A DNA stretch of 64,000 bases, from IMG/VR virus record IMGVR_UViG_3300030376_007544, positions 32,001-96,000 of that record. One strand, 5' to 3'. Shown here piece after piece: positions 7,740-27,107 of the stretch; position 1 is the first letter of the stretch, and every line of letters starts with the position of its first letter. Made by a program: the position numbers and the translations under genes. The DNA comes from a virus. Its lineage: Duplodnaviria; Caudoviricetes. Below the pieces are notes generated by a model, which saw nothing but the letters and a program-made list of their open reading frames with translations, made no database searches and was not told where the DNA came from.

Positions 7740-7847
7740 GTCAGTTCGCTGAAAAATGTGTCACGTTACCTCCCGGTACAGAAGTTCGTCGCCGAAAAGT
7801 TCCGAACAAGTCCCGACCTTGTGAAAAATTTCACTAAGTTTCGAGCT

Positions 7848-7999
7848 AAGTTACCCGGCAGTAACTTAAAAATGACAAGTTACCCGGGAGTAACTTATGA
7901 AAAATGACGAAAACTTAAGTTACCAGGAAGTAACTTACGAAAACTTAAGTTACCCGGCAGTAACTTATCAAAATTTACGAAGTTACCCGGCAGTAACTT
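7848..7999. repeat. five copies of the palindrome AAGTTAC-N6-GTAACTT
   Basis: Copies at 7848, 7877, 7917, 7947, 7980; a sixth at 14166. Confidence 0.9.
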
Positions 8000-8896: not shown

Positions 8897-9119
8897 GTTA
8901 AGTTTGCTTAACTTTGTTCGTGAAGTTCGCCTAACTCGATAAGTTAAGTTTGCTTAACTTTGTTAGTTAAGTTCGCCTAACTTTTTCTGTTAAGTTTGCC
9001 TAACATAAAATGTTAAGTTTGCTTAACATAAAATGTTAAGTCAGCCTAACAAAAAATGTTAGCTTAGCCTAACATCAAATGTTAGCTTAGCCTAACATCG
9101 AATGTGAGGCATGCCTAAC
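8897..9119. repeat. ten copies of GTTAR-N6-YTAAC at an exact 23-bp period (DtxR/MntR-box-like)
   Basis: Starts at 8897, 8920, 8943, 8966, 8989, 9012, 9035, 9058, 9081, 9104. Confidence 0.9.
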
Positions 9120-9626
9120 ACCCAAATTTCGCCAGTTTCGCCTAAGCGCTGGAATCCTACGGTCAAGCTTTTTAGGATTTTTTGAAAAAAAAATTGAAAA
9201 AAATTTGAAAAAAAAATTGAAAACATTTAACATTCAACACACAAAGGAACCTTATACCTAGTAAAGAACTAAAACAATTACCAAACCAAACCACATATAC
9301 CCAGTGCCACAGTAGACCAACATCACTAACATGACACGTTGGAACTACGCAACAGTACCTAAACTGATACTAAATGATCACTACTCCAACTCAACTAAGT
9401 TAAAAAAACATTGAGGAACTGCACCCGAAGTAAGCAACTCGCTAGCTTTCTCCCAGAAAACTAGGGGATTACACTCATCAACCATGTACATAACTGCAAT
9501 CAAACGTTCCATTATATCCATGAACATACTGTATCGCAACCCTTTCCCCAAAAATCCTCCAATTCCTGCTACAATAGTTCAACAAATACTTGACACTTCA
9601 AACGGGACTATATAAGATAGATAAAC

Positions 9627-9785
9627 ATGAACGAAAACAACGACGACCACGCTACAGAAGCTTCGCCAGTTACTGCGCCTAGACTGTCACGCTATACTTG
9701 TCATAAGTGTGATGTATCACTAGAGGCACTAACAGAGTCTGATGTTTGGTGTGGAAAAGGACATCGCATGGAGAGGATAGGCTAA
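9627..9785 (+). CDS. small Zn-ribbon protein (52 aa)
   Basis: CHKC...CGKGH; TTGACA-17-TAAGAT promoter at 9590-9618. Confidence 0.6.
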   Translation: MNENNDDHATEASPVTAPRLSRYTCHKCDVSLEALTESDVWCGKGHRMERIG

Positions 9786-9786
9786 A

Positions 9787-9930
9787 GTGGCTAGAAGAAA
9801 CGCATCGTTTGGAGCAGGAACTATCAGCAAAACCCAGCGTAAACGCAAAGGGATACACGCAAAGAGTAAGCACTCCAAACTCAAAGGTTCCAAGAACTAT
9901 AAGAAAAAGTACAGAGGACAGGGAAGATAG
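9787..9930 (+). CDS. small, highly basic protein ending KKYRGQGR (47 aa)
   Basis: GTG start two bases after the previous stop; K/R-rich. Confidence 0.6.
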   Translation: MARRNASFGAGTISKTQRKRKGIHAKSKHSKLKGSKNYKKKYRGQGR

Positions 9931-9937
9931 TTAGGCC

Positions 9938-10035
9938 CGAACAAACGTTCGCCAATGTTAAGCACGCCTAACATTTGATGTTAGCTTAACCTAACACATC
10001 GAACAAACGTTCGCCACATACCGAACAAATGTTCG
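9938..10035. promoter_or_regulatory. three LexA (SOS)-type boxes with a DtxR-like pair between them
   Basis: CGAAC-N4-GTTCG at 9938, 10000, 10022; GTTAR-N6-YTAAC at 9957 and 9980. Confidence 0.75.
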
Positions 10036-10174
10036 CCCATGTTCGTCACATTTTTGCTCGTTTTGCGAAGCCACCCGAATCCTACGGTCAACCTACGGTC
10101 AGCATAAAACAGAAAAACCCCACACCCGAAAGAAAAAGAAAAGGTGTGGGGTTAGACTGGAAAGAAAGGTACTT

Positions 10175-10438
10175 TTAAGGTAGCACCAACCTCTGTCCTA
10201 TTTGAAGATATGAACCTCCATTGAGTTCGCTTGCTTGATAGACTGCGTGTCCAGTATGACCTTCGCAGTGTTCATTTATTATGTCCCAGAGAGTGTCGCC
10301 ACTTTCAACTGTCACTTCACCGGATTGGCACTTGTAGTCAATTGCGTCATTTGCGCCCTTGACTATCCCTATTCCCAGTCCAGCAGTGATAGCAATTGCG
10401 CCTATCCCTCCAAGAGCTTTTTTAGTTAATGTGTTCAT
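10175..10438 (-). CDS. membrane-anchored LysM-domain protein, leaderless
   Basis: N-terminal TM helix; VESGDTLWDI...LQIGQRLVLP; ATG 7 nt after TAAGGT. Confidence 0.85.
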   Translation of the reverse strand: MNTLTKKALGGIGAIAITAGLGIGIVKGANDAIDYKCQSGEVTVESGDTLWDIINEHCEGHTGHAVYQASELNGGSYLQIGQRLVLP

Positions 10439-10554
10439 AGGTATAACCTTAACACACTCCATGTCACATTGCAACACTTCTCAACAAAAAATAAAAAAAT
10501 AATTTCTTAGGTAAAAGGTTGCGTTCATGTTGCAACTCTGCTAACATGGTATTC

Positions 10555-10701
10555 ATGAGTTACAGATACGACATAAAACACGACTGGTACACTGATAAGT
10601 GGAACGTCGTTGATACTCGTAACAGAGACTGCACAGTCTCCACACATAGTTCTAGGGAAGAAGCACTAGCCGAAGCGCTAAAAAAGGATAGTTCTTCTTA
10701 A
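10555..10701 (+). CDS. small hypothetical protein, leaderless
   Basis: TTGCGT-17-TAACAT, ATG 7 nt downstream. Confidence 0.65.
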   Translation: MSYRYDIKHDWYTDKWNVVDTRNRDCTVSTHSSREEALAEALKKDSSS

Positions 10702-11286
10702 CTAAGGGGGATGCTGAGGCTACCCCCCTAAATCTTAGCCCCACTTCTGGTTTCACTCATTTCCCAGAGGTGGGGCTTTCTTCGTGTACCCCCAACATTC
10801 ACCCAAAGCTCAACACGAACATATGTTCGCATCGAGGTCAGGTCAGGCCGAGCAGGTCGAGAGGCCGATGTGTCCCGATTACATCGGGGCTTTATCAGAC
10901 CTAAGCTTAGCTCGAAGCTTAGCTTGACCAGCTCGAAGCTTAGCTGGATGCAGGAAAAGTTTGCCAAAAGGTTGCATTTTGAATCGTTTTGCGCTAAACT
11001 TCAGCAAACCCTACGGTCAGCCTACGGTCAAACCTGGGAAAAATCAACAAAAGCCAACGAAAAGTTGCAATTTTGTCCAGCTTTGCAGCAGCTTAGCAGC
11101 AGCTTAACCAGCTTAGCAGCAGCTCGGATGCAGCGATTCGAGGTCAACCTCGTGAAGTCCCGACTATATCGGGACGATATGACCTCACTTATTGGCCATC
11201 TCGCACTTGCATCCATATAAGCTCGCATACCAGGAAGAAACCCCAGACTAGGGAAATGAGTAAAACCTAGTCTGGGGTTATGAACT

Positions 11287-11379
11287 TTAGTGTCCTAAAA
11301 CATTTAGGACTGCTAAAGTTAGAAATAGGATTCCGAACATCCAATACATCGGAACCATTTCTTTTGAATACCAACTCAT
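11287..11379 (-). CDS. 30-aa membrane peptide
   Basis: MSWYSKEMVPMYWMFGILFLTLAVLNVLGH; GGGAG RBS; own promoter and terminator. Confidence 0.65.
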   Translation of the reverse strand: MSWYSKEMVPMYWMFGILFLTLAVLNVLGH

Positions 11380-11459
11380 CTTTATCTCCCTTCGTTGATA
11401 CTTCATCTTATCAAACTCACAACTAATTGCAACCTTTAATTAAAATTATTTATTATTTA

Positions 11460-11732
11460 TTACCACTCACGCCAACTTCTGCCCCAACGTGGAGATGTTG
11501 ATCGTAAGTAGGTTGCGAGTTCAGGGTACTTCTCTTCTATAGCGCTAGGCAAGTAAACGTGCACTAGCAGATCAAGCGTCCTAACGAACCTACAGGGAGA
11601 ACCAAACCAAAACCTACTTCGTGGTTTCATTTCGTTCTTGATGTAGGCACGAACCCTATTGTGATCTATGTCCCAATAATCAACGCCAACTTTATCTGCG
11701 AAGATTCGTAGTCCTATGTAGTAGTTGTTCAT
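11460..11732 (-). CDS. hypothetical protein, paralogue of 27108-27389, leaderless
   Basis: Shared DYWDIDH, SRFWFGSPC, LRSTSPRWGR. Confidence 0.8.
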   Translation of the reverse strand: MNNYYIGLRIFADKVGVDYWDIDHNRVRAYIKNEMKPRSRFWFGSPCRFVRTLDLLVHVYLPSAIEEKYPELATYLRSTSPRWGRSWREW

Positions 11733-12374
11733 ATGTATGAGTATAGGTTGTCTACAACTATATTGCAAGTTTTATCTAAGAAATTGTTTGATATTATTAG
11801 CTCCACCTAACATGCCCGAATGTTAGGCTTGCTTAACATTGAGTGTAAGTTTAACATAACACAGGTCAGGTCAGGTCAGGTCGAGCAGCAACAGGCCAAA
11901 TCGAGGTCAAGATGTCCCGAATATATCGGGACTAATCGAGAGCTTAGCAGCTTAGCAGCAGCTCGAAGCTTAGCTCGATCCCAGCTCAGCCGAAGCTGGA
12001 AAACCCTACGGTCAGCCTTTTTTTGCTAAAATGTTGCAAAACGAAAGGCTTTGTGATATAATGGAATCAACTTTTGCCCATCCTAGCACAAACTTTGGCG
12101 AAGACCATCCCAAATCCAGCTCGACGCAGCAACTTTGATCGACTCGACTCAGTGAGTCCCGACTATAACGGGGGTCTACTAGGTCGATTTGACCAGCTTT
12201 GGCCCTTATCGCCACATCCCGTATACCAGGAAGAGATCCCAAATTAGATAAGGAAATAAAACTAATTTGGGATCAACTCCGTAAATTTATTGTGTCACTC
12301 ACTTCTTGAGTGTGAGGGATTTATGTTGCCACGATCCCTACTCGCCGAATCTGATTCAGATGGTTTAGTTACGC

Positions 12375-12565
12375 TTAAGCCTGAACTGTGTCGAGCCATG
12401 CCTGCGCTTCCTCGTGCGTCTTAAACCCCATTAGGATTTTTGACGCTTCTGGATAAAGCGCGTGGAAGGCTGATGGTTCATTGCTCTCAGGTCCCCATAG
12501 CCGAAGCCATCGAGCACTGTAGCGAACTACGCCTGTCTCTATATGATCACCCCATTTCCACTCAT
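12375..12565 (-). pseudogene. small gene with an apparent frameshift at its start
   Basis: The leaderless ATG at 12565 is out of frame with the ~62-codon ORF that ends at 12375. Confidence 0.35.
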
Positions 12566-12641
12566 GTATCCAGGTTATCACGAAATTTCGCAAAACCACC
12601 CGGTTTTTTAAAAAAATTTAAATTTGCCACATTATGGGAAA

Positions 12642-12787
12642 TGAGAATGATTCTCAAAAGTTTGTGAAATGTTTCACTAAGTGACCGAACATTTGTTCCC
12701 CCGAACACTTGTTCCCCCCGAACATATGTTCCCCGAACACTTGTTCGTGTTAAGCATGCCTAACATTGAGTGTTAGCTTAACATAAC
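12642..12787. promoter_or_regulatory. stacked operators: Fur-like, Rex-like, 4x LexA-like, 2x DtxR-like
   Basis: TGAGAATGATTCTCA 12642; TTGTGAAATGTTTCACTA 12662; CGAAC-N4-GTTC at 12686, 12702, 12719, 12734; GTTAR-N6-HTAAC at 12749, 12772. Confidence 0.75.
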
Positions 12788-13354
12788 AAAATAAAAAAAA
12801 TAAAAAAATTTCAAGAAAAGGTTGTTTTTTTTGAAAGGCTGCACAAAAAATCGACAGGTCAAAATCGACCTCAGCGTGTCCCGAATATATCGGGGGTCTA
12901 CCAGGTCGCTGGAAACGCTACGGTCAAGCTACGGCCAAGCTTTCGAGCTGAAAAGGTTGCGAAAGCAAAAAACTTCTGCTAAAATGAAAAGAAATCTTCA
13001 AAAGTTTAGCGAAAGCCTGGGGAAAAACAACCAAAAGCGGCAAAAAGTTGAAAAAAAGCAGCTTCGCAGCGCAGCTTCGGGTCATCCAGCAGCCACATCC
13101 CGCATAAGTCCCGACTATATCGGGGGCCTCTAAGGTCCACGTATCCTGGATCGGATCATCCTTTTCACGAGCTTCACTCAGTGTGTTCATGTGACTACTT
13201 TTTAGTCTGGATCCCGATTTCACTCAGCGTGTTCATATGACTACTTTTTATTCTGGATCCAGAATCGTATTCATGGGATTTCCCACAATGTGGTTAATTT
13301 TGAAACTTTGGTAAAAAAGTTTCGAATGTCACAGGCATTAGATAGATTGAATAC

Positions 13355-13657
13355 ATGGAAAAGAAACAAGGGAAGGAAGGTGAAAAAATGAGAACTCTTG
13401 AGAACGGAGCAACCGCTCTTGTGTGGAGTGTGCAACACAATGCTGAAGGCAGTGGGTATCGCAACTACACAGGCGTTGTTCTGGCTCATGCGCCCCATCT
13501 GATGGATCCATATGCAACATGGACTGTCGCTTCAGATGATGGGATCACGTTCTGGTGTAATGCAGGGCATTACTACTCCAGTCGTGAAGATGCACATCAA
13601 GACTTCGTAGTGCGTGCCACTAACGAAACAGACTTGATGTCTCACGCAGTAGCCTAA
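13355..13657 (+). CDS. hypothetical phage protein
   Basis: Own promoter; PYATW...GHY motif; alternative start at 13388. Confidence 0.7.
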   Translation: MEKKQGKEGEKMRTLENGATALVWSVQHNAEGSGYRNYTGVVLAHAPHLMDPYATWTVASDDGITFWCNAGHYYSSREDAHQDFVVRATNETDLMSHAVA

Positions 13658-13773
13658 AGCGAGTCAGACTCGGAGCCTGATGGGGGCTTGGCAACAGAAC
13701 CCCATCACCCCAACAACTTGATAAGGAAGGAAAAAGATCCCCCACTCCCTAAGGTGGGGGATTTTTATTTACC

Positions 13774-13875
13774 CCAGATCCAGATCCAGATCCAGATCCA
13801 GATCCGAGCCTGATCCTGATCCGAGTCAGATCCAGATCCAGATCCAGATTGGAGTCAGATCCAGATCCAGATCCA
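13774..13875. repeat. (CCAGAT)n microsatellite containing 13 GATC
   Basis: Read directly from sequence. Confidence 0.9.
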
Positions 13876-14165
13876 TCCCCGAAACTCTTTCAAACTGGGC
13901 AACTTTGGAAATCGCTACGGTCAAGCTCCGGTCAAACTTTTTGCATCCTTCTGATCCGCCCTCGATCCAACCCTGCAACCTGGAATACCCCCGATTATAT
14001 CGGGACTTTCTGAGAAGTCGAGGGTCTAAAGCTGCATCCGAGCTGCATCCGAGCTGGAGCTTAGCTACTGCGTGAGTCCCGTTATATTCGGGACTATACG
14101 ATAGGTTTTGACCTGACCTGACCTGCTGCTCGACCTGACCTGACCTGATGACCATCCCCCGAACT

Positions 14166-14324
14166 AAGTTACTCAGTGGTAACTTGTGTTAGGCACGCTT
14201 AACACTAAATGTTAGGTGAACTTAACATATGTTAGGTATGCTTAACATTCAATGTTAGGCACGCTTAACATACTCCCCGAATAATGTTAGCTTCACCTAA
14301 CACTCAATGTTAGGGCTACTTAAC
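14166..14324. repeat. one GTTAC-N6-GTAAC plus six GTTAG-N6-YTAAC boxes in three 23-bp pairs
   Basis: 14188/14211, 14231/14254, 14286/14309. Confidence 0.85.
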
Positions 14325-14392
14325 GAAATAAATAATCTAAAGAATTCATCAAAAACACCCGGAGTGTCACACATAGATGATAGATTGAACTT

Positions 14393-14704
14393 ATGAGTAG
14401 TTTGGAGGTGAAAGAAAATATGAGTCATGTACTTCTGATTGAAGGCGCTGATGGCGATTTAGTTGATGCACATACAGTGTGTAGCGACAGTTGTCACCGG
14501 AGCCTAGCAGTAGAGTTAGACGTGCCCTATGGAGGGTGGTTCGGTTGTATCGAACTGGAGTTTAACGACTACTGTCAGTCTTGTGGGACGCTGATTCATG
14601 GGGTTGAAGGACCCCATGAGTTCCATAACACTGTATGTGAAGATACCACTTGTGAACTTTGTTCTGATGAACGTAAGTTGCAACTGGAACTCGCTACAGT
14701 TTAA
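14393..14704 (+). CDS. Cys/His-rich putative metal-binding protein
   Basis: CSDSC, CQSC, CxxxxCxxC; alternative start at 14420 after GGAGG. Confidence 0.7.
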   Translation: MSSLEVKENMSHVLLIEGADGDLVDAHTVCSDSCHRSLAVELDVPYGGWFGCIELEFNDYCQSCGTLIHGVEGPHEFHNTVCEDTTCELCSDERKLQLELATV

Positions 14705-15514
14705 GGCTTCAATCCAATCCTGAATAAGATTCGGACTCACACCCCTAGAGTTGGCACCAGAATAGGGGCAACACAAACAACAACACATTCAACGAAACAT
14801 TGAAATACAACTAAACAACTCATGGATATTCCCCGATTTACTTAGGTGAGTCGGGGAACTTTCCTGGAATCCGAGAAAGCTCGGAATTGCTACGGTCAAG
14901 TTATTCTGGTCAAACTGCAGCCAATCATCCGAACTCAAGCAGCCAATCGATTCGAACTCAAAAAGCCCCGTATATATCGGGACTAAATAAGAAGCTGAAT
15001 GAAATCGTGAGCTTAGCTGCTGCTGCGAGCTGAGCTTAGCCGCTAAAAAGTGACGAAAAGTGACGAAAGTGACGAAAAGTTCGAAACTTTTTTACCATCC
15101 TATCAAAAGTTTTTGAAAATTGCAACTTTTTGCCGAAAAACCAGGGAGCTTAGCCGCTGAATCAGCCGCTACACGCTGCAAATCGAAGTCGATTCAGCAG
15201 GTAAGTCCCGTAATAATCGGGACATATTAAGGTTGGCCTGACCTGACCTGCCATCCCAGCAGCCATCCAAGTGTTAGGTATGCTTAACACGAAATGTTAG
15301 GTACGCTTAACATTAGAACCGAACAAGTGTTCGTTTATGTCATTTATGTTACAGAAAAAGAAATTTAAGAAAATCTTGCGTAAAACTTGCAATTGTCACA
15401 CCCACCACCTAAGATGGTGTTTACATAGATGAGGCACCTGCCAAGTAGGTGAAGAGTCTGGGTAAGAGTCCCAGAAGGTGCCACATTGTAAACACCTATA
15501 GGAAAGAAAAACAT

Positions 15515-15760
15515 ATGCTTACACGTATGCATTTCGACACTGTAGCGAATAGCTTAAGGCTTAGGCTTGAAGCACTTATTGACAACCTCAATAGAGCGCC
15601 TCAAATCCACATGGAAGCCGTTAAGGTATGGCACGCAATCGCTTGCGATATGCGCACCATGTTCGCTGGAAGTAACCCTAGATTTGATGAAGAAAAGTTT
15701 AACGACGCTTCTGGAATCACTTCAGTGGAATACTTTCTCCCCAGTGTCAAAACCGACTAA
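15515..15760 (+). CDS. hypothetical phage protein
   Basis: LTRxHF...NPRFDxxKF motif; promoter and structured leader upstream. Confidence 0.7.
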   Translation: MLTRMHFDTVANSLRLRLEALIDNLNRAPQIHMEAVKVWHAIACDMRTMFAGSNPRFDEEKFNDASGITSVEYFLPSVKTD

Positions 15761-16067
15761 GAGTCGGAGTCCGGCGGAACTCGGCAACAGAATCCGCCCA
15801 AATAAATAGCCAACCTAAACAAATACTCCGCTGAAAGGGCGGGGTATTTGCCTGGAATCGAGAAAGTTCGAAAACCCTACGGTCAAGCTACGGTCAAGCT
15901 TTTGAGCTGGTCGGCAGGTCAAAACTCAAGTCGATCCCAATCAGTCCCGAATATAACTGGACTATCTAACCGTTCTTTTGTTTAATTCGAGCTTAAGGAC
16001 CACCCAGGCAAAGGTTCCCGACTTGTCTGACGGGAACCTTTTTTAATCCGGTATTTAGTTTGGAACC

Positions 16068-16160
16068 TTATCGCTTTTTGGGCGGTATACAACTTTTCAG
16101 TATGTAAAACCACACCATAGCAAATCCTACTGGACCTACTAGAGCAAATACAATTTCCAT
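16068..16160 (-). CDS. 30-aa membrane peptide
   Basis: MEIVFALVGPVGFAMVWFYILKSCIPPKKR; own promoter and terminator. Confidence 0.6.
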   Translation of the reverse strand: MEIVFALVGPVGFAMVWFYILKSCIPPKKR

Positions 16161-16302
16161 GTATTTCTTTCTGAGTGATTAAGTACTTCTTAACCTCTCA
16201 CCTTCAATACTAGGTGCAAATATCATAAATTGCAACCTTAAAACAAAAAAAATAAAAAATAACCCCTGATCCGAAGATCAAGGGCTACTTTTGTTATTAG
16301 TT

Positions 16303-16566
16303 TTAGCCTATTCCTGCGAACTTATTAAATTCAGCCTCTTCAGCGATTGTTAGTTCTCTAGGTTGTTGGTTGTGGATTTCTAACCCCCACATTGTTCGGT
16401 GCATATGCTCAATCTCTTTAGCCTGTCTGTAGTCTTTACAAAACAGTTGTAGTATTTGACAATCAGTTTGATCGCCAGTTGGAGATTGAAACCATAAGTG
16501 TAGAGCATTATCTCTTACTTCGGTTCCGCATAAAGCTCCCTTTGTTGTTATTGTTGGTTCTATCAT
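16303..16566 (-). CDS. hypothetical protein
   Basis: Promoter, RBS and terminator bracket the ORF. Confidence 0.7.
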   Translation of the reverse strand: MIEPTITTKGALCGTEVRDNALHLWFQSPTGDQTDCQILQLFCKDYRQAKEIEHMHRTMWGLEIHNQQPRELTIAEEAEFNKFAGIG

Positions 16567-16706
16567 GTATTCCCATCTAATCCGTTAGTACTTCTAACTT
16601 CATAACTTAATCGTATCATGACCCGAAACAGATTGCAACCCCAATAGCAAAAAATTATCTAAAATAATTCTTGCTTTTGTCACACACCTATGTTAAGGTA
16701 ATAAAC

Positions 16707-16859
16707 ATGATAAACAAACTAAAAGACAACGGACATAAGTGGAAGGCACTTGATGGAGATGTTCGGTGTGTTGTGTGTGATGCACGGCCATCGGGAGCAT
16801 CTGCCAAAAAGTTGTGCATACGCTTTGATCTGGAGAGAATGCAAGGCTCTAAAATATGA
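16707..16859 (+). CDS. small Cys/His protein, leaderless
   Basis: TTGCTT-17-TAAGGT then ATG; H...CxxC...C. Confidence 0.6.
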   Translation: MINKLKDNGHKWKALDGDVRCVVCDARPSGASAKKLCIRFDLERMQGSKI

Positions 16860-16957
16860 TTACAATTCTAGTCACATTTGGAGTTGGAGTGATAGTTGGA
16901 ATACTTATCGCAACTTACTTAGAGCATGGGGCAATACTTTTGCCCGATGACGAGTAG
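16856..16957 (+). CDS. 33-aa membrane peptide
   Basis: ATGA overlap with the upstream stop; MITILVTFGVGVIVGILIATYL... Confidence 0.6.
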   Translation: MITILVTFGVGVIVGILIATYLEHGAILLPDDE

Positions 16958-16989
16958 CAAACTCTACGGTCAGACTATTTCGCAAAAAG

Positions 16990-17207
16990 ATTGAGTGTCC
17001 TGACGGGTACATAAGGACCAACGGCAGTTGGCGGTATTGTTGGGGTGTGGTAGGAATACTGCACTAAAGCGACACACTCTAGGGAATCGAGCCTACTTTC
17101 GGGGACAGATAGCAATATGTCCAGTCCGATAGGGCTAGCCGTACCAAGCGGTTGAGTACTCCTTAATCCCTAACCCCACCTTCGTGCTGAGGGTGGGGTA
17201 TTCTTTT
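16990..17207 (+). ncRNA. candidate structured RNA
   Basis: No ORF, GC-richer, several stems, ends in an intrinsic terminator. Confidence 0.35.
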
Positions 17208-17229
17208 ACCCCACCCCCTACGGTCAGCA

Positions 17230-17481
17230 CTACCGTCGGTTGTAGCGCCTTCGGTTAAACGCCCGACATGTACGGCAGTTAGTCGCCAACTTCTCTTCGC
17301 CCTGATAGACGTAAGTGAATTGCTCCACTTTCAACCATTGACGACAAGTGCGACATATGTACATCTCGCCCTTCGCAGCTCGTTTAATGGCTTCAAGATC
17401 AGTGTGGTCGTGGTTGTCTTCCATGACACTGGCACGATCCATTCTTGCCTTTAACTTAGTCGCTTGAAAACGATCTTTCAT
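17230..17481 (-). CDS. Zn-finger protein
   Basis: Two CRTC motifs; GGAGGTG RBS. Confidence 0.7.
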   Translation of the reverse strand: MKDRFQATKLKARMDRASVMEDNHDHTDLEAIKRAAKGEMYICRTCRQWLKVEQFTYVYQGEEKLATNCRTCRAFNRRRYNRR

Positions 17482-17678
17482 AATTCACCTCCTTAGGTAA
17501 TTTGTCTTACACTACATATAGGCACCAAAGTCGTAAAAAGCGGACATAAAAATAAAAATAATTTATTTTGCTTAAAGGGTTGCATTCGGGCCACAAAGAT
17601 GCTACGCTGGTAATTACCAAGTTGGAAGTACCAATTTGGCTCAAGTCGGAAGTACTGACTTGATTAAGGAGATATTCG

Positions 17679-17822
17679 ATGCAAAGAGAATTGAACTGCA
17701 AATGTGTTAGATGTGACAAATTGTACACAACTAGCAAACTAGCAGGAATAGATCGCAAAGGTTTCTGCATTAACTGTTGGCAACACCAACGAAATATATG
17801 GAGACTCGTAAGATCAACATAA
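17679..17822 (+). CDS. 47-aa Zn-finger protein
   Basis: CVRC...CINC; AAGGAG RBS. Confidence 0.65.
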   Translation: MQRELNCKCVRCDKLYTTSKLAGIDRKGFCINCWQHQRNIWRLVRST

Positions 17823-18084
17823 ACATAAACTAAAACATAAAGTTTCGTGAAGAAGTTTTCTCATTTTCCTTCTTCATGAAACATTCCCAAAAAGACCCAC
17901 ACTTTTTCATTTTCTTTCGAGTGTGGGTCTTTTTCTGTCCAGCTACATAATACAAAATCAAAAAAATACTAAGAGTTGTATTTATATCGGGACTTTCTTA
18001 CTTACCCTTCCTTCTATTACACCTCTATGGTGTCCCTATGGTGTCCCTACCCAGGCAGAAGGGGAGCCGAAGCCCCCCTCCAAA

Positions 18085-18279
18085 TTAAGACGCTTTTTTA
18101 GCGTTGAGTTTTTTGAAGTAAGGAGTGACATCATCAACCACTTTTTCACCGTAGTGAATTTCAGTGGCGATTACCATGTCTCCACAGTCCCTTATTTCTT
18201 GGGCTTTTTCTTCGAGCTCATATTCACATACGATTTCCGAAGTGCCTTCGTTATAAGCAATTAATAAGAATTCTCTCAT
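18085..18279 (-). CDS. hypothetical protein
   Basis: RBS, promoter and terminator bracket the ORF. Confidence 0.6.
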   Translation of the reverse strand: MREFLLIAYNEGTSEIVCEYELEEKAQEIRDCGDMVIATEIHYGEKVVDDVTPYFKKLNAKKAS

Positions 18280-18730
18280 TGTTTTCTTTCTATCTGATTG
18301 AGACTCTCTCAACCCGATAACTTAACTCTAACAGGGTTTGAGAAAAAACACAACCTTTTTTCAAAAAAAAATAAAATAATTTTTTCCTCTATTTTGTTAG
18401 GTATGCTTAACATCAAATGTTAGCTACGCCTAACACTTTTACTGGTCGAGTGGCCTGAAATTGAAAAATCAAGCTGACTTTGTGAAACTTTTCACAAACT
18501 ATCGAGGAGTTTGTCGATATTTGGCCTCAAAAAGTCCCGATTATATCGGGGGCCTCTGAGGTCGAAAACTCTACGGTCAGCTCACGGTCAGCTTGCCCGC
18601 CCACCCGTAAAGTCCCGTATATATCGGGGCTTAAAGACCTCGAAACTCGAACGGCCACTCAAAAGCTCGTATACCAGGCGAAATCCACCGCACTCATAAT
18701 GCGGTGGAAGCCTCCTTCGGTTAAGAAGTT

Positions 18731-19111
18731 TTACCGTCTTGGTTGTGTAACTTTGACGGAAGAAACTTCTTTGATGTTGATCGCTTTACCAACAAGATCG
18801 CTATCTAGCCACCCTGCTTCAACCGCACCGTCAATAAGTTTCATCTCACCGACTCGCTTGGTAACACGTTGGTGTTGCCCTTGCGGAAGAATCGCTTTCA
18901 GAACATCGTTGTCAATAGATCGTCTGTTTTGATTCACTATTGCAACTTTCGTTCCGTCTGCGAGGGTTACGCTTTCAACTTCTAACGCTCGGAAAGCAAG
19001 TTCTGCTTCCTCAACCGCTTCCCTTGCTTCTGCAAGAGCGCTCCGTGCTTCCACGACTCGCTGTGCGGTTAGTTCGCTGATCTTGCGATCATTCACTAAT
19101 AAAGTATCCAT
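18731..19111 (-). CDS. hypothetical protein, paralogue of 25023-25406
   Basis: Near-identical VESVTLADGTKVAIV...LPQGQHQRVTKRVG. Confidence 0.85.
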   Translation of the reverse strand: MDTLLVNDRKISELTAQRVVEARSALAEAREAVEEAELAFRALEVESVTLADGTKVAIVNQNRRSIDNDVLKAILPQGQHQRVTKRVGEMKLIDGAVEAGWLDSDLVGKAINIKEVSSVKVTQPRR

Positions 19112-19656
19112 GTCGGACCCTTTCTCTAATTCAGAAGCCTATCTGGGACTCTCACCCTGACTCTTCACCTAATGGCTAGACTCCTGTTTTCTTTGATATA
19201 TCCAGGTTACCATCGTTGTGAGACAAAACCACCCGGTTTTTCAAAAAAATTTCAAATAATTTTTTTCGTAACATAAATGACATATTTGTTAAGTTCGCCT
19301 AACAGGCCATGTTCACGCTTGCGAACAGATTATGTTAAGTGCACCTAACAAACGATGTTAAGCAGAGCTAACAAATAAAAAAATAAAAAAAATAAAAAAA
19401 ACTTGACAAAAGGTTGTTTTTGTGAAAGCAGCGTGCAGGTCAAAATCGAGGTCAGTATGTCCCGATTATTACGGGACTCTCTTCCTTCTATTAAGCCTCT
19501 ATGGTGTCCCTACCGCATGACCTGCAGCAGCGCTGACCAGTACCCGCCCAGGAAGAAGCCCTAGCAGGAAAATGAGTGAAACCTGCTAGGGCTTTCGGAC
19601 ATCGCATCAGTAGTTAGCAAAACTAGGTTACTAATCAGTAGTGCGATCCTCCGATT

Positions 19657-19794
19657 TTATGAGGAGAGATGTTTCGCTAGTTTGGGGTGCTCCCTTAGCG
19701 TCTTCTCTCTTACTTCACGCTCATGATGCCTGTGCATCGTTTTGGCGAGCGTAGCGTATAAGAGCGCTCCTATTATGTAAAGTGCTAATGTCAT
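19657..19794 (-). CDS. 45-aa membrane-anchored peptide
   Basis: MTLALYIIGALLYATLAK...; GAAAGG RBS; own promoter. Confidence 0.6.
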   Translation of the reverse strand: MTLALYIIGALLYATLAKTMHRHHEREVREKTLREHPKLAKHLSS

Positions 19795-20016
19795 TGTTTA
19801 CCTTTCGTTTTAACGACAAGTACCACCGTATCAAAGATTCAACTACATTGCAACACCGAAAAGCTAAAAAATTAAATAATTATTTTTACGCTAAATACTT
19901 GCAATTGTCTCACGGGCCCTGTAGCATGGAATGTATAAAGAAAAGCGAGTAGTCCGCCGTAAGGACTGGTTCGAGTGAAAGCCTCGAAGGACTGCTCCCA
20001 AGTAGAAAGGTAAAGC

Positions 20017-20352
20017 ATGAAACTAATCACTGCTGATCAACGTAAACGGCTTCTGGCAAACCACGAAGCCAATCTCGAAGGAGAAGGAGGGATCGACCAC
20101 AAACCTGTAGTGAAAATATTCACGGCAGGGGCAGGGGCGACATGGTTGCTTACAGAGATGGACGAAGATGGAATCTTCTTCGGCCTATGTGATCTTGGTC
20201 TGGGGTTTCCAGAACTAGGTTATGTCTCTCAAAGTGAATTTGATTCACTTCCTGCAAATATGTTCCTCGAACGTGATGCATGGTTTACGGCTACGAAAAC
20301 CCTTAGCGAGTACGCTTCGGAAGCCCGTGGCCTGCGACGAATCGCTGCTTAA
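20017..20352 (+). CDS. DUF2958-family protein
   Basis: PVVKIF...ATWLLTE...FGLCDLGLGFPELGYVS...ERD. Confidence 0.85.
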   Translation: MKLITADQRKRLLANHEANLEGEGGIDHKPVVKIFTAGAGATWLLTEMDEDGIFFGLCDLGLGFPELGYVSQSEFDSLPANMFLERDAWFTATKTLSEYASEARGLRRIAA

Positions 20353-20523
20353 TCGGATGCCTCCGGCCTTCTGGTCGGGGGTATTTCCCTGGGTGGCCAT
20401 AAATAAAAATCGACTACCCGTGAAGTCCCGATATAGTCGGGGCATCCTGACCTCGACCTGACCTGACCTGACCAACCAGGAAAAATCCCCCAACACTTTC
20501 GTGCTGAGGGATGAACCTACACG

Positions 20524-20658
20524 TTATCCGTGACAGAGATCATGCATGTGGCGGAGATCTTCGTCCCAATCCCACATCATCTCCATAAGGTCTTCCTTAC
20601 TCATGAGTGGTTCTGCTTCGACCCACTCTCCGTCTTCATTTCTGGTCCATTCAGTCAT
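20524..20658 (-). CDS. 44-aa acidic, Trp-rich peptide
   Basis: GGAG RBS; own promoter and terminator. Confidence 0.6.
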   Translation of the reverse strand: MTEWTRNEDGEWVEAEPLMSKEDLMEMMWDWDEDLRHMHDLCHG

Positions 20659-20992
20659 TTTATCTCCGATCTGAATCTACAAGCTTCCACTTTGAAGGCC
20701 TGATATATCCAGATTACCATGACCACTTCATAATTGCAACCCCAAATAAAAATTAATTAATATTTTTAGCAGCCGTTGAAAATAGCAGCCACTGAAAATG
20801 CAGCAGCAGGTCAGGTCGAGTGCAGGTCAGATCAAACACAGGTCAGGTCTGGTCAGGTCTGGTCACCCCGTAAAGCCCCGATTTATACGGGGCTAAATAA
20901 GTAAGACCACTCAGGATTTCTCCCCCTCACTCTAGGCCACCCGTAGGTGGCGAGGCCCGTTGGTCTACGGGGTGGTCTACTTACTTCGACAA

Positions 20993-21142
20993 TTAGACGA
21001 TTTCGATTTCGAATTCGCCGTTGTCGTACTTCTTGTCGCATCCGTTTCCTCGAAAGCTTCCACAGAAGACTAATCCTTCTTCGGTTGCTATCGCATCGAG
21101 TGACGAGCAGAAGATTCCACAATTATCACATTTTACTGGCAT
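20993..21142 (-). CDS. small Zn-finger protein
   Basis: CDNC...C...C; GAAAGGA RBS. Confidence 0.65.
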   Translation of the reverse strand: MPVKCDNCGIFCSSLDAIATEEGLVFCGSFRGNGCDKKYDNGEFEIEIV

Positions 21143-21392
21143 ACTGAATTCCTTTCGGTAGTTAATTATTTCAGTACTTCCAGGATACCACCGTTTGACC
21201 AGCATTGCAACATCAAATGCAAAAAAAAAGAATTTTAATTTCTTTGCAAAAACCGGGTGGTTTTGTCTCATAGTCGTGGTATCGTTCTATTTGTTGGTAA
21301 AGTACCGACATTACATACTAGCCGTAATTCTCGAATGAGTGGAAAGCCCCTGACAGTAGAAGCCTGTAGGTTCGAGTGGGAAAGGAATAGAA

Positions 21393-21761
21393 ATGTTTAC
21401 ACGAACAGATAGTGTTTGTATAGATATTAGTCAAGACGGACAAGTGCCTGTTCTAGGTTACGCTTATTCGTTCTCGAAAGCTCGTGACGAGTGGTTTGGC
21501 TACGTCGCTGTCAGAGAGGGTATGCTCTCTTCTGAAATGCGATACGTAGTTAAACAAATGCACCGTATCACGAAGTACGGAGAGGACGTATGGGAAGTAA
21601 TCGAAGGAACTACTGTCGAAGGTACCGATCCTGTAGAATCAGGAATACGGAACAACCGACAAAGTGCACTCGTTACACTGTCGAAATTGTCTTTAGATTT
21701 ATTTCGGGGTAACGACTATGTTGATTACGGAACCGTAATGAACATCCCACCACTTGGCTAA
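21393..21761 (+). CDS. hypothetical protein
   Basis: RBS, promoter and terminator. Confidence 0.7.
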   Translation: MFTRTDSVCIDISQDGQVPVLGYAYSFSKARDEWFGYVAVREGMLSSEMRYVVKQMHRITKYGEDVWEVIEGTTVEGTDPVESGIRNNRQSALVTLSKLSLDLFRGNDYVDYGTVMNIPPLG

Positions 21762-21977
21762 CCGAAGGGAATCCACCGAACTAAACACTCGGTGGATTTT
21801 GCCTGGTATGCGAGATTTTGTCAATTTCTGACCAGCAGGTCAGGTCATGCAGCAGGTCAGGTCAGGTCGAAGGTCGAGTAGTCCCGTATCTATCGGGACT
21901 CTTCTCCTTCTATTAGACTGCTATGGTGTCCCTATGGCGTACCTACGCTATGCAGCTCGCCCCAACCCCAACCAGGC

Positions 21978-22251
21978 GAAAAGCCCACCGAACTTCGGTG
22001 GATCGGTTCTTCACTCTCTACTTGCGAAGGGTATCTTGTTTGCCATTTAGGTTCGCCCTCCACCTTGCAAGGTTTTTGAGGAGTCCGCACCGTACCTTTC
22101 GGTTCTTTTGATGGTTTCCGTTTCCACTTCTGGTAGGTTTTTTGGTAAAAAGAACCTCTTTCCACGAAGTTCGGTGGGCCCTTAGTTGCAACCCAACCGA
22201 ATGGATATTCAGTTGTCAATTCGGGGTTTCCCCCTGCCACCCTTTCGGGCT
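21978..22251 (-). ncRNA. candidate structured ncRNA, about 275 nt
   Basis: TTGCTT-17-TAAGAT promoter; GNRA-capped stems; terminator; only an 11-codon ORF has an RBS. Confidence 0.55.
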
Positions 22252-22647
22252 ACGCCCATCTTAACATAAGGGTGAGACAAAAGCAACCTTTGTCCAACAA
22301 TTTCTTAAATAATTTTTTATTCCCAGTAGCGGCAAAATAGCGGCAAAATAGCAGCGAAAATCTGTCGTTTTTGAAAGTTTTTGACAAAAAACGGGAGACC
22401 AGCGGGCAGGCCAGTAGAAAATTTGGCAAAACTAATCAAAAATGACAGTTTTTGCTCAGCTCAGGCAGAGCTAAAAGGAGCAAAAGATGAAGGAGGTCAG
22501 GTCAAAGTTTACCTGAGGTCTAATAGCCCCGACTATATCGGGACCCGGTTAGGTATGCTTAACTCTTTTTGTTAGGTTGGCTTAACATCACTCTAAAAGG
22601 ACATGCAGAAACCCCGACCCTTTCGGGCCGGAGTTCGCTGCTGGGAT

Positions 22648-22866
22648 TTAGATGGGGAATTGTTCTCCGTATTGAAACTCTCGAACAACTATGACCATTT
22701 TTCCGCAACTATGGCAGTGATCATTTTCCCAATACTTAGAGCCACAAGAACATCGTGTACAACCTTCTTTGGCTATTCTGTTACCGAGTAGTTCATCTTG
22801 GGTAAACATTTGCAGTTGGCCCTCAAGTTCTACTCGTACTGTATCTTTTGTTAGTTCTTTTAACAT
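22648..22866 (-). CDS. small Zn-ribbon protein
   Basis: CSCGSKYWE...CHSC. Confidence 0.7.
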   Translation of the reverse strand: MLKELTKDTVRVELEGQLQMFTQDELLGNRIAKEGCTRCSCGSKYWENDHCHSCGKMVIVVREFQYGEQFPI

Positions 22867-22957
22867 CTTTTGTCTATTCCTAACTTCGCTCGGTACTTCC
22901 TTGCGATAACTCCATTATACACCGTCTACAGTAAATTGCAAGTCTTTAGGTAAGATT

Positions 22958-23488
22958 TTACAGAGTTAAGTTCTGTAGTTCTCCGTTATCCATCATCTCA
23001 AATAAGATCGTTAATGACTTACTTTGCCTCTCTTGAGTGTGTTTACCTTGATCTACTTTGAATGACCAGCGTGGGTCCTTCTTCGCTTCCTCTAAACCTT
23101 TGTTACTGAAAGGTTCACCAGTGTAGTGGTAGACGCTAGTAATTGTTGGTTTACGTTCTTTAGAACTCCAGAGCTCGTTTAGGCAGTCACATTCATGATC
23201 ACCAAACTCTCCTACTAATGCTCCGATATGCTCCAGATCACAAGTACTTAAAAGATCAGTCTGTACTACCAGATGATCTAATAGTTCACTTCCCTCAAAA
23301 ATGGTAAGAGAAGGAGACTCTGTAGACACAACTAAGTCTACTGCTGTAGCCATGTCTAGTTGGTCGTGGATAGGCATAACTTCTGCCCACTTGTATCCAT
23401 CTTCTTCGTGTATGTCAAGAACGAGAACAAGCGAGTCGCCATTGACGACCCGCAAGTCTCCTCTCGCTAAAGTTCTATTAGCACCCAT
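22958..23488 (-). CDS. hypothetical protein, possibly PemK-like fold
   Basis: RGDLR...LVLVL...VMPI pattern; GGAGG RBS. Confidence 0.55.
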   Translation of the reverse strand: MGANRTLARGDLRVVNGDSLVLVLDIHEEDGYKWAEVMPIHDQLDMATAVDLVVSTESPSLTIFEGSELLDHLVVQTDLLSTCDLEHIGALVGEFGDHECDCLNELWSSKERKPTITSVYHYTGEPFSNKGLEEAKKDPRWSFKVDQGKHTQERQSKSLTILFEMMDNGELQNLTL

Positions 23489-23586
23489 GTACGAGATTAC
23501 CTCCTATGAATGCAAACAGAAAGACTGCTACGGCAAGTATTATAGAGACACCTATGCGTCTCCTGAAGTAAATAGTATCCCAATCT

Positions 23587-23871
23587 TTATTCAAGGTCCT
23601 CACCTACTTCTATTGCTACTGCTTTAACCATCTGTCTGATTTCAGTTCTTCCATTAGTATGACTCCGCAGAACTGTCATAAAGGCTGTCTCTCTCATTTC
23701 CATGAGCGAGTCCTCTAGGAGTTCATTGTCATCATGTCCTTCATCAAGAGCCTCTTGATAAAGGATTTCTAAACCTTCTTCTACCATCTTGAGGGATTCC
23801 ATTACTAGGTAAAGACGATCACTAAATGGTAGTGCTTCGGTATCTGTTCGTTCTTGAAACTCAATACTCAT
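23587..23871 (-). CDS. acidic hypothetical protein
   Basis: Start overlaps the upstream stop. Confidence 0.7.
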   Translation of the reverse strand: MSIEFQERTDTEALPFSDRLYLVMESLKMVEEGLEILYQEALDEGHDDNELLEDSLMEMRETAFMTVLRSHTNGRTEIRQMVKAVAIEVGEDLE

Positions 23872-24056
23872 TACCAGTTCCCCTTTCTACAAGCCTTACG
23901 ACTTGCTTCTTTTTTACGATTAGTAAACTTGACTGCACGCTGTCTACGGCCTTCTTGCATGTGTGCCACTTTGGACTCATACGCTAATTTCCGTATTGAC
24001 TTGTGTATGTCATATGGTTCTAATTCTATTTTTAGCTTTTTCTTAGTTCTAGCCAT
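23871..24056 (-). CDS. small basic protein
   Basis: AAGGAG RBS; K/R-rich. Confidence 0.65.
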   Translation of the reverse strand: MARTKKKLKIELEPYDIHKSIRKLAYESKVAHMQEGRRQRAVKFTNRKKEASRKACRKGNW

Positions 24057-24140
24057 TTTGACTCCTTTTGTCTAGGCTGATTTGTTGTTAGTTTAAGGAT
24101 ACCAAAACCGGAGAGGCATTGCAACCTCTCCGGCATGATA

Positions 24141-24776
24141 TTATAGATTCGCTAATGCTCCTCTAGCGCTACTATGATGAGCAGACAATTCGCTAGTCTC
24201 ATCGTAGTGACACTCTCCGGCAAAGTACGCTTGCCCTCCCTCGAAGCACATACCTTCCTCTCGGAAAGATACGCTAATTTTTAGGGTAGGGAATTGTTTA
24301 GACACATGCTCCCAGAATGAATTACTTAATGGACTCCATGCCGTTTCAAAACGACCATCTATCTGTCCACGTTCATCATCGTAGTAAGAGTCCAGATGGG
24401 TTTCATAGTCTCCCCATTTGGTTCCCCAATTCTCGTCAGAGATTGCCCACGAGTACCAGTCACTGAAACCTGTTGTTTCTCTAGCCTCAATACCAGCAGC
24501 CCACTCTTCTGCATGAATCGCTTTTGCTTTATTGTACTTATCCATATTCCAATTTTCATTGGTTGGATTGTTCACCCATTCCATATACTTTCCATCTTCA
24601 TCAAATTGCTCTGATTTTGGACTTGGGGATTTAGTACCCTCAAGTATTTCTGGCATGGGCATGAGGTTTACGATACGAACGTCATCAGTTACCTGATCCC
24701 TGATCGCTTCCTCGAAACGTCTTACATCAGACGCTGGTCCTTCTACCTCTAGGTAGTTTTCGCAATGGTTCGGCAT
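24141..24776 (-). CDS. DUF1281/Api92-like ferredoxin-fold protein
   Basis: MPNHCEN, WYSW...NWGTKW, FETAWSP. Confidence 0.8.
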   Translation of the reverse strand: MPNHCENYLEVEGPASDVRRFEEAIRDQVTDDVRIVNLMPMPEILEGTKSPSPKSEQFDEDGKYMEWVNNPTNENWNMDKYNKAKAIHAEEWAAGIEARETTGFSDWYSWAISDENWGTKWGDYETHLDSYYDDERGQIDGRFETAWSPLSNSFWEHVSKQFPTLKISVSFREEGMCFEGGQAYFAGECHYDETSELSAHHSSARGALANL

Positions 24777-24777
24777 A

Positions 24778-24969
24778 TTAGCCTCTACTTTCTAGCAGAT
24801 CATCTGCCATGTCTCGGATACCTTGATAATCTGGTACCTCGTCACTGAAATGAATGTCATTAGGAACATTTAGCTCCGCTAACATACTTTCAATTTCTTC
24901 ATCTGGTAAAGTTTCCTCTACCTCTATTGTGTTTTTCATAAAGTCTCCTGACTTTGGTTTGTTTAACAT
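24778..24969 (-). CDS. small acidic protein
   Basis: Promoter upstream; packs against the next gene. Confidence 0.6.
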   Translation of the reverse strand: MLNKPKSGDFMKNTIEVEETLPDEEIESMLAELNVPNDIHFSDEVPDYQGIRDMADDLLESRG

Positions 24970-25022
24970 ATTACGAGTGTATCAGGCTAGGGAGTCTATT
25001 GCAACTCCCTAGCCCAAATAAC

Positions 25023-25406
25023 TTATCGCTTTGGTTGGGTAACTTTCAGCGATTGTACTTCTTTGACGGTGATTGCTTGGTTTACCAAGTCTCCATCTAA
25101 CCAACCTGCTTCGATTGCTCCGTCAATGAGTTTCATGTCACCGACTCGTTTGGTTACTCTTTGATGTTGTCCTTGTGGAAGAACATCTTTGAGAACCTCA
25201 TTGTCAATGCTTCGTCTATTTTGTGTGACGATTGCAACTTTGGTTCCGTCTGCAAGAGTTACAGATTCAACATCTAACGCTTTGAATTGCGCTTCTGCTT
25301 CTTCAACTGCATCTTTTGCATCTGCTAAAGCGGAACGAAGTTCAACAACTTTTTGGGCTGCTAACTCCTCTACTTTAGTTTGGTTAATAATTACTGTTGT
25401 ATTCAT
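25023..25406 (-). CDS. hypothetical protein, paralogue of 18731-19111
   Basis: Sequence near-identity; GGAGG RBS. Confidence 0.85.
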   Translation of the reverse strand: MNTTVIINQTKVEELAAQKVVELRSALADAKDAVEEAEAQFKALDVESVTLADGTKVAIVTQNRRSIDNEVLKDVLPQGQHQRVTKRVGDMKLIDGAIEAGWLDGDLVNQAITVKEVQSLKVTQPKR

Positions 25407-25660
25407 TTTAAGTCCTCCATGACTTATTAGTGTGTTTTCAACTTAACAGATCGTTTTCTTTCTGTCAAGTCTTTACCTAAGATTTTTCAAATAAATTTTA
25501 TTTGCTTCCTCATCGGTATATTCAATTTACCAGATGGGTGTGACAATGACAACCTCGAACACAATAAAATTAAATAATTATTTTTGGAATAATGACTTGA
25601 CAAGGTAAATCAGGCCTGCTACCATTACTGACGTAAACAACTATAACTCATGGAGGTACT

Positions 25661-25912
25661 ATGAGCGACACAATGCAAGACATTGAAACAAAATGGATAG
25701 AGCGAATCAGCAAGGAGCTTGTCGGTAAGACAATCACGAGTGTTGAGTATCTCTCTCCAAAAGAAGCAGAAGATAATTATTGGTACAAGCGACCAATCGC
25801 AATTACTTTTGATGATGGAACATGGATAATACCCATGTCAGATGACGAAGGAAATGACGGAGGTTCTCTTGCCACAAGCATAGAGGAACTTCAGATAATC
25901 CCAGTCCTCTAA
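25661..25912 (+). CDS. hypothetical phage protein
   Basis: LVGKTI...SDDEGNDGG motif; GGAGG RBS. Confidence 0.75.
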   Translation: MSDTMQDIETKWIERISKELVGKTITSVEYLSPKEAEDNYWYKRPIAITFDDGTWIIPMSDDEGNDGGSLATSIEELQIIPVL

Positions 25913-26191
25913 TTCCACCACAGTCCTGAACATGACTCAAAACTGTTCACCCAAAACCAGACATATATTTTCGGAGACAAAACCGAAACAAAAAAAAGAT
26001 AGGACTTCCCCTGCGCTTTGTTGAACTCCAGCAAACAGCAGCGAAAGCAGCAGCAGGTCAGGTCAGGCCAAATCTGGTCAAAATCAAAAGAAGGGTGAGA
26101 TAGTCCAGTTTCTTTCGGGACTTCCTTAGTGCTATATGAGCTCAATGGTGTCCCTATGGTATCCCTACGGTTGGCAAGACCAGCAACCAGG

Positions 26192-26633: not shown

Positions 26634-26675
26634 TAAATACATTAGCAGACTCTTAAAGGTTTGTCAAGTCTTTTT

Positions 26676-27014: not shown

Positions 27015-27107
27015 GTGTTCCACTGTAGCAGGTCTTGAATACCATTGCAAGTAAATCTTAAATAAAAATTACTTGACAACTGAAACAAAGTATGTCATAC
27101 TGTTCTT

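Follow-up and report, generated by a model that had tools for sequence, protein, structure and literature searches.

Binding sites for host regulators, one regulator at a time, are already known from phages: CtrA, Spo0A, LexA or, at tox, DtxR. What is new in the phage described here is that four stress and metal repressors are lined up. The tox gene of corynephage beta, an actinophage gene, is controlled by the host iron repressor DtxR through one operator over its promoter. Mycobacteriophage L5 has stoperators, many dispersed, asymmetric sites in short intergenic gaps, and these serve a repressor that the phage itself encodes. In E. coli, the locus datA titrates DnaA.

Two phage systems and one host gene come close. 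The Spo0A boxes of the lytic Bacillus phages phi29 and Nf couple early transcription and replication to host physiology (PMC2731898), and phages of Alphaproteobacteria have intergenic regions dense in CtrA boxes, associated with ‘lytic deferment’ (Mascolo et al. 2022, PMC9437464). IdeR-activated host genes possess several boxes, and at bfrB it is four upstream boxes that relieve silencing by Lsr2 (Kurthkoti et al. 2015, reviewed in PMC10317159). IdeR also recognizes a 14-bp half-site, TTAGG-N4-CCTAA, that binds one dimer with an apparent KD of ~78 nM, and whose function its authors leave open (Marcos-Torres et al. 2021, PMC8464063).

The phage and its host

The DNA comes from an IMG/VR record of an uncultured marine virus, 128,360 bp long and rated 87% complete; ‘the window’, below, is the whole stretch of 64,000 nucleotides analysed, bases 32001–96000 of that record. 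The record is densely coding except at ~7.7–28 kb of the window. Stop-codon recoding was considered as the cause of this gap and rejected: it opens no long frames, and the stretch is therefore truly ORF-poor. No DNA match to the phage turned up among 50,697 phage records. Cultured phages reach at most 43% protein identity in the family-A DNA polymerase (PolA), which is closest to the enzymes of Streptomyces and Thermobifida phages, and ~31% in SNF2. The phage encodes a sigma-70-type factor, no tyrosine or serine integrase was found in it, and it is a virulent-looking actinophage.

The host is taken to be an actinobacterium because the phage has two WhiB-family genes (window 36822–37208, minus strand, and genome 15660–15833), a family that appears in the control set only in Corynebacterium. 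The WhiB protein that was translated begins with a long, proline-rich N-terminal extension and lacks an AT-hook, and the idea that the AT tracts described below are WhiB7-type sites was dropped. Other routes to the host and to relatives led less far. A search with the phage sigma factor returned only unrelated bacteria; five small, low-GC actinobacterial genomes are unlikely hosts, having no Rex box; the relatives obtained through SNF2 stop within the SNF2 gene; and a search through the DUF932 gene found none.

A row of operators

At 12642–12788 of the window lies what we call a docking row: one Zur box, one Rex operator, four LexA (SOS) boxes and two IdeR/DtxR half-site boxes, on 146 gene-free bases between two AT-only tracts. 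An earlier note on this DNA had described four operator families end to end between AT tracts. All the boxes are where it placed them, with gaps of 0–6 bp, and its four assignments hold, ‘Fur-like’ being refined here to Zur and ‘DtxR-like’ to the IdeR half-site type. Read from the left, the row opens with the Zur box (12642–12656), a perfect 7-1-7 palindrome, TGAGAATGATTCTCA, centred at about -84 from the leftward transcription start discussed below. The Rex operator, TTGTGAAATGTTTCACTA (12662–12679), matches TTGTGAA-N4-TTCACAA at 17 of 18 positions. Next come the LexA boxes, CGAAC-N4-GTTC(G), at 12686–12698, 12702–12714, 12719–12731 and 12734–12747, joined by C-run linkers of 2–4 nt and spaced 16, 17 and 15 bp from centre to centre. 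The first iron box, TGTTAAGCATGCCTAACA (12748–12765), agrees with TTAGG-N4-CCTAA at 13 of 14 positions; the second, TGTTAGCTTAACATAACA (12771–12788), in a 23-bp register with the first, is degenerate, with one mismatch in each arm (12 of 14). The left AT-only tract (12604–12625) is the upstream, UP-like element of a leftward promoter. The right one (12788–12811) has a sibling at 19375–19401, and adjoins a promoter-like module on the plus strand, AAAAGGTTGTTTTT of family D11 (12812–12835), with TTGTTT at 12822–12827 and no clear -10.

Such boxes are not scattered by chance. Strand matches to CGAAC-N4-GTTC number 15 in the window, where 100 dinucleotide shuffles of it lead one to expect 0.39; GTTAR-N6-YTAAC gives 28 (0.49 expected), and the Rex motif, at no more than one mismatch, gives 5 (0.07 expected). 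The row's motif families are confined to the ORF-poor early region, ~7.8–26 kb, of this 128-kb phage, which packs ~50 such boxes into 15 kb and groups them in 11 operator clusters. In an unbiased census of palindromes with 5-nt arms the same families rank top in 7.7–28.1 kb, and in the other 108 kb of the phage no family exceeds five copies. Perfect 7-1-7 palindromes are not rare (there are 12 in the window), and the significance of the Zur box lies therefore in its sequence, not its symmetry. A motif scan of the window found no CIRCE, HAIR, DnaA, NrdR, CtsR, DasR, KstR, McbR, AmtR or CsoR sites.

The arms of the motifs carry 2 bits per position, and their cores and linkers 0.1–0.5 bits. With arms conserved and the rest drifting, it is selection on a binding surface, and not recent duplication, that has maintained the copies. 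The same row is present on two independent metagenome contigs (L093 and L094) that differ only in poly-A/T lengths, and is thus no artefact of assembly; the two copies being near-identical, their comparison yields no evolutionary depth.

The operators and their host counterparts

The Zur box is of the 7-1-7 type TGAnAATnATTnTCA, and is perfect as a palindrome. The exact palindrome occurs in 5 of 201 evenly sampled Actinomycetota genomes (reversed control, 0), and it is because all five copies adjoin Zur-regulon genes—for a ZIP transporter, ZnuA, two FUR-family proteins and CobW—that we call the box Zur. It is the only one in the phage.

Perfect Rex 18-mers number three, all elsewhere in the early region. 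The exact consensus was found in 35 of 151 Actinomycetota genomes, at 1–5 copies per genome (control, 0), a tally that includes five genomes flagged as unpublished (G126, G007, G054, G024 and G094) and becomes 30 of 146 without them; nothing else stated here depends on those five. Among the phage 18-mers, those with cores AACT and ACTT have exact counterparts at sites recurring across many of the published genomes, and every Rex copy in the phage retains the inner A/T that distinguishes Rex boxes from the CRP-type TGTGA-N6-TCACA. Of ten neighbouring genes in host genomes, three encode geranylgeranyl-reductase-type FAD oxidoreductases and the remainder are mixed.

Among the LexA boxes, the one at 12734 matches the palindromic core CGAAC-N4-GTTCG at 14 of 14 positions, and the other three at 13 of 14, ending in GTTCC without the last G. 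This core is shared with the mycobacterial consensus, TCGAAC-N4-GTTCGA (PMC3381160). Measured against that 16-bp consensus, which may not be the host's, only the box at 12733 comes within two mismatches, the others having neither the outer T/A nor the last G.

The iron 18-mer, TGTTARG-N4-CYTAACA, occurs 18 times in 16 of 401 Actinomycetota genomes, once or twice in each (control, 3), and 16 times in the phage, where the looser 14-mer is found 22 times. Ten neighbour genes were scanned in the host phylum; those that it directly precedes include genes for Fe3+-type solute-binding proteins (at three loci), for a siderophore-interacting protein and for a repressor of the DtxR family, and the site at the last of these is of the phage's own GG/CT type; locus L046, outside the ten scanned, resembles one of the three binding-protein loci. 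None of the 28 iron-type boxes at window 8.9–22.6 kb is the perfect half-site TTAGG-N4-CCTAA. In 23 of them one arm is perfect and the other is one base off: TTAGG/CTTAA in 11, TTAAG/CCTAA in seven and TTAGC/CCTAA in five. Perfect palindromes seem to be avoided, then, and the pattern suggests an affinity that is tuned rather than maximal. The orientation of the iron boxes is independent of the direction of the adjoining promoter. The best matches in the region to the full 19-bp IdeR/DtxR box, TTAGGTTAGSCTAACCTAA, have 3–4 mismatches, and neither iron box of the row passes as one.

Host readers or phage readers?

No LexA, Rex, DtxR or Fur DNA-binding domain is encoded in the 87%-complete record, and host proteins are therefore the likely binders of the row. 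It might be, instead, that the readers are the phage's own—a replication initiator acting on iterons, proteins of partition sites, a phage repressor—and that the boxes do no more than resemble host operators, an explanation that we think improbable. At window 8897–9119, ten iron-type boxes stand in tandem with an exact 23-bp period. The whole layout associated with 8897–9230, which reads two perfect Rex boxes (8848 and 8873), the ten iron-type boxes, then CTACGGTCA and four AT repeats of the TTGAAAAAAA type, resembles iterons with an unwinding element, and may be an origin of replication. Groups of two to four GTTAR-N6-YTAAC boxes recur in 16 other viral contigs, moreover; most small proteins of the early region belong to no known family; and two palindrome families of the region, AAGTTAC-N6-GTAACTT and GTCCCG-N7-CGGGAC, have no known host reader. 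All this would suit a phage-encoded reader. The row itself, however, has neither the phasing of 8897–9230 nor its AT repeats, and no initiator was identified. Its four unrelated motifs each fit a different host operator, and two of these have been verified at the right regulon genes. LexA boxes, besides, are common to phages that share no core genes.

CTACGGTCA appears at 9157–18579 on the plus strand only, with a period of ~1 kb, and is often doubled, 11 bp apart, like the direct repeats of response regulators; elsewhere in IMG/VR the doublet was found on one other contig (L001). Some 19 GTCCCG-N7-CGGGAC palindromes with AT-rich centres, flanked by (CAGGT)n or (ACCTG)n, are spread over 10873–22543. 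There are six AAGTTAC-N6-GTAACTT palindromes, at 7849–7998 and 14167, five of them consecutive and directly past the SNF2 stop codon, and an unrelated 130-kb phage (L039) has six boxes of the form AAGTTA-N8-TAACTT. A 300-nt direct repeat with 75% identity (18731–19030 and 25023–25322) represents two paralogous small genes within the array region. PHROGs and Pfam assign none of the region's small proteins to a DNA-binding family.

Related contigs

Paired CGAAC-N4-GTTC boxes 4 nt apart were found on 27 IMG/VR contigs of 35–68% GC, several of them with 6–12 boxes, and a Rex box abuts a LexA box on three other phage contigs, of low GC. Two distant kin of 129 and 145 kb (G005 and G006), whose SNF2 is 42% identical, have 6–8 LexA boxes ~100 bp before the SNF2 gene, touching the promoter-like hexamers TTGATA and TTGACA. 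The LexA arrays of distant kin on L013 (3892–4057) and L018 (6609–6744) have the same C-rich linkers and lie on both sides of a TTGATA hexamer. Three further contigs (G002, G003 and G004) have neither this phage's SNF2 nor its 1100-aa protein, yet use the same grammar. In one 35%-GC viral fragment (L040), a perfect CIRCE, TTAGCACTC-N9-GAGTGCTAA, lies directly beside LexA-like boxes at ~9955–9990; the same fragment has 20 copies of TTGTTAA-N4-TTAACAA, 10 perfect LexA boxes and four Rex boxes.

Promoters next to the row

To the left of the row, on the minus strand, lies the core of an early promoter (12572–12603), with the conserved block CCGGGTGGTTTTG at 12591–12603 and a -10, TAACCT, at 12577–12572. 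Its probable start is the A at 12565 of a leaderless 8-codon ATG ORF. Most small genes of the region are leaderless, with promoters built as AT tract, TTGCnn, 17 nt, TAnnnT, 6–8 nt, ATG, and the spacing of the leftward promoter agrees with theirs. Five paralogous copies of it (family A1) align as AT tract, GAAAAACCGGGTGGTTTTGTCTCA, 9 nt, TAnnnT. Early promoters at 9590–27050 have GTC(A/T)CA within the spacer, 9 nt upstream of the -10, an element common to the TTGCnn and CCGGGTGG classes. The leftward unit (12236–12565, minus strand) is ~300 nt long and probably ends at a hairpin (12236–12275, minus strand); it has a weak coding signal and no convincing gene, and may be a non-coding RNA.

Relative to the leftward start, the row spans about -75 to -225, with the last iron box at about -215. 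Operator arrays lie just beyond the AT tract at three of the five copies of this promoter, and two have none. The association with AT-rich DNA is more general. For 6 of the 11 operator clusters, a tract that is at least 83% AT lies no more than 60 nt away, where chance would put one at ~5% of flanks. The other clusters come after the SNF2 stop codon (7819–7999), in the 3′ UTR between convergent genes (9938–10035), and behind terminators (10816 and 22547). Nowhere in the region does an operator box overlap a confident -35 or -10.

Promoter-like hexamers, though weak ones, do run across the Zur box on either strand: TTGCCA-16-AATGAT reads rightward and TTGAGA-17-TAATGT leftward. The rightward pair (12624–12651) could make the row a repressive gate, with Zur blocking the -10 while Rex, LexA and IdeR act as roadblocks further downstream, in an arrangement that would release a transcript only once the repressors were off or titrated. 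Of the explanations considered we find this the least probable. The site has 9 of 12 matches and an AT tract in the UP position, operators of these kinds lie 5–45 nt from start codons in host genomes, and the LexA boxes of G005 and G006 lie on both sides of promoter-like hexamers. Yet such promoter-like sites are not enriched in the region (15, against 12.9 in shuffles), no plus-strand ORF follows, and an AND gate that combines four unrelated stresses is hard to make sense of physiologically.

A proposed input of host state

A row of plain DNA such as this either reads the physiological state of the host—zinc, redox, DNA damage and iron—or disturbs it. We rank the former first, tentatively and at somewhat less than even chances: the row would be a cis-acting input of host state. 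We do so because clusters of host-factor sites on phage DNA act in cis where this has been tested (CtrA, PMC9437464; Spo0A, PMC2731898); because multi-box IdeR arrays upstream of bfrB displace Lsr2 from AT-rich DNA (PMC10317159); because a conserved AT tract and promoter lie right beside the row; and because the iron boxes, 0 of 28 perfect and 23 exactly one base off, look tuned in affinity. That clusters tend to lie near AT tracts, and that kin have LexA boxes touching promoter-like hexamers before SNF2, agrees with this. The earlier note had held that four packed SOS boxes away from a core promoter were hard to explain as cis-regulation. This was overstated, given that the row begins ~75 bp upstream of the leftward start, and that multi-box IdeR arrays are a published cis mechanism (PMC10317159).

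The row, ~150 bp of non-coding DNA, would dock one Zur, one Rex, four LexA and two IdeR dimers, and all four repressors would be on that DNA together only in a cell that is replete in zinc and iron, oxidised and undamaged. When occupied, it would form a block of protein directly upstream of the AT tract of the leftward promoter and beside the second AT tract on the right, and might alter the access of RNA polymerase, or of the AT-binding silencer Lsr2, to these tracts, much as four IdeR boxes do at mycobacterial bfrB. Early transcription would thereby be coupled to the condition of the host, and some soaking-up of repressors would follow in any case. The analysis establishes the boxes, a placement that is not random, their agreement with host operators and the absence of binders of the phage's own; we infer the binding of host proteins, their action on the flanking promoters and the sign of that action.

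Several observations sit awkwardly with a cis-acting input. At about -75 to -225 the row is too distant for simple occlusion, and it overlaps no confident -35 or -10. Ten tandem iron boxes, and 16 of the 18-mers where host genomes have 0–2, exceed any known cis need. The clusters in the 3′ UTR (9938–10035) and behind terminators (10816 and 22547) have no obvious place in the scheme; nor do the two promoter copies that have no array, and the leftward unit offers no convincing gene to regulate. The Lsr2 step presupposes, besides, that the host has Lsr2.

A possible sponge for repressors

To the earlier note the row was the clearest single example of a decoy design: DNA that acts by drawing host repressors to itself. 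This strikes us as the next most likely explanation, although a doubtful one. The row and the ten other clusters would bind away LexA, Rex, Zur and IdeR as copies of the phage genome accumulate, and would switch on, if this rather unlikely account is right, the SOS, respiratory, zinc-uptake and iron-uptake genes of the host with no phage protein involved. The numbers of boxes, far above those of host genomes, speak for it. The phage genome has six perfect LexA 14-mers and three near-perfect ones, compared with 14 perfect ones in a 3.9-Mb actinobacterial genome and 25 LexA sites in vivo in M. tuberculosis (PMC3381160). It has three perfect Rex 18-mers to the 0–5 of a host genome, and 16 iron 18-mers to the 18 of 401 genomes. 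The boxes are of unrelated families packed 0–6 bp apart, and the composition of the clusters is freely shuffled among spacers. Some clusters are distant from any promoter, in a 3′ UTR or behind terminators, and no clear -35 or -10 is overlapped; arms held at 2 bits while cores and linkers drift point to selection on protein binding. Arrays of LexA boxes recur on 27 viral contigs, and Rex–LexA abutments on three other phage contigs. In a synthetic yeast system (PMC3322331), repeated decoy sites do sequester a factor.

Other observations count against a decoy. The iron boxes are imperfect, and avoidance of the perfect palindrome is odd in a sponge of maximal affinity. About half of the clusters, 6 of the 11 abutting AT tracts, are tied to AT tracts and promoters for which a sponge has no need. 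IdeR would mostly be off the DNA already in iron-poor sea water, and the phage has only one Zur box. Among the papers found, none describes a phage whose DNA naturally serves as a decoy for a host factor.

Significance

A row acting in cis might let the phage compute the overall fitness of its host—zinc, iron, redox and DNA integrity—before committing to its early programme. If it is a decoy, four host regulons would be rewired by DNA alone, in a protein-free counterpart of auxiliary metabolic genes: multiplied along with the genome, the operator rows would take LexA, Rex, Zur and IdeR off the host chromosome, and genes for DNA repair, respiration, zinc import and iron import would be opened to the advantage of the phage, a prospect that we regard as not very likely. 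The iron boxes would give the IdeR half-site a natural use, and the marine origin of the phage ties the row to iron limitation in the sea.

Comparison with known systems

We found no paper that describes multi-repressor rows on phage DNA, and each of the known systems resembles this one in part. The L5 stoperators, many though they are, serve a phage repressor, whereas this phage has no such repressor domain. At datA and in the yeast decoy repeats (PMC3322331), clusters of high-affinity sites sequester a protein, but these are chromosomal or synthetic and concern one protein. With the IdeR half-site (PMC8464063) the iron boxes share both the sequence of the arms and the 4-bp spacer; they deviate from it typically in a single base of one of the two arms (TTAAG, TTAGC or CTTAA).

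At bfrB (PMC10317159), tandem IdeR sites upstream of a promoter, in AT-rich actinobacterial DNA, act in cis without occlusion; the gene is a host gene, however, and its boxes are of the full 19-bp kind, with one reaching over the -35. In the phage the boxes are imperfect 14-bp half-sites, mixed with LexA, Rex and Zur boxes.

Among phages, phi29 and Nf respond to a single regulator, Spo0A, with sites at early promoters and origins, in a Firmicute host. The CtrA-box phages likewise have an early or intergenic region dense in sites for a host global regulator, through which the phage reads the state of the host. Theirs is one regulator, of the activator type, with sites in promoters, and both binding and regulation have been demonstrated. 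In the phage described here the candidate sites belong instead to four repressor families, with further unassigned motifs besides; they are packed one against the next, some upstream of promoters and others apart from any, and in tandems of up to ten.
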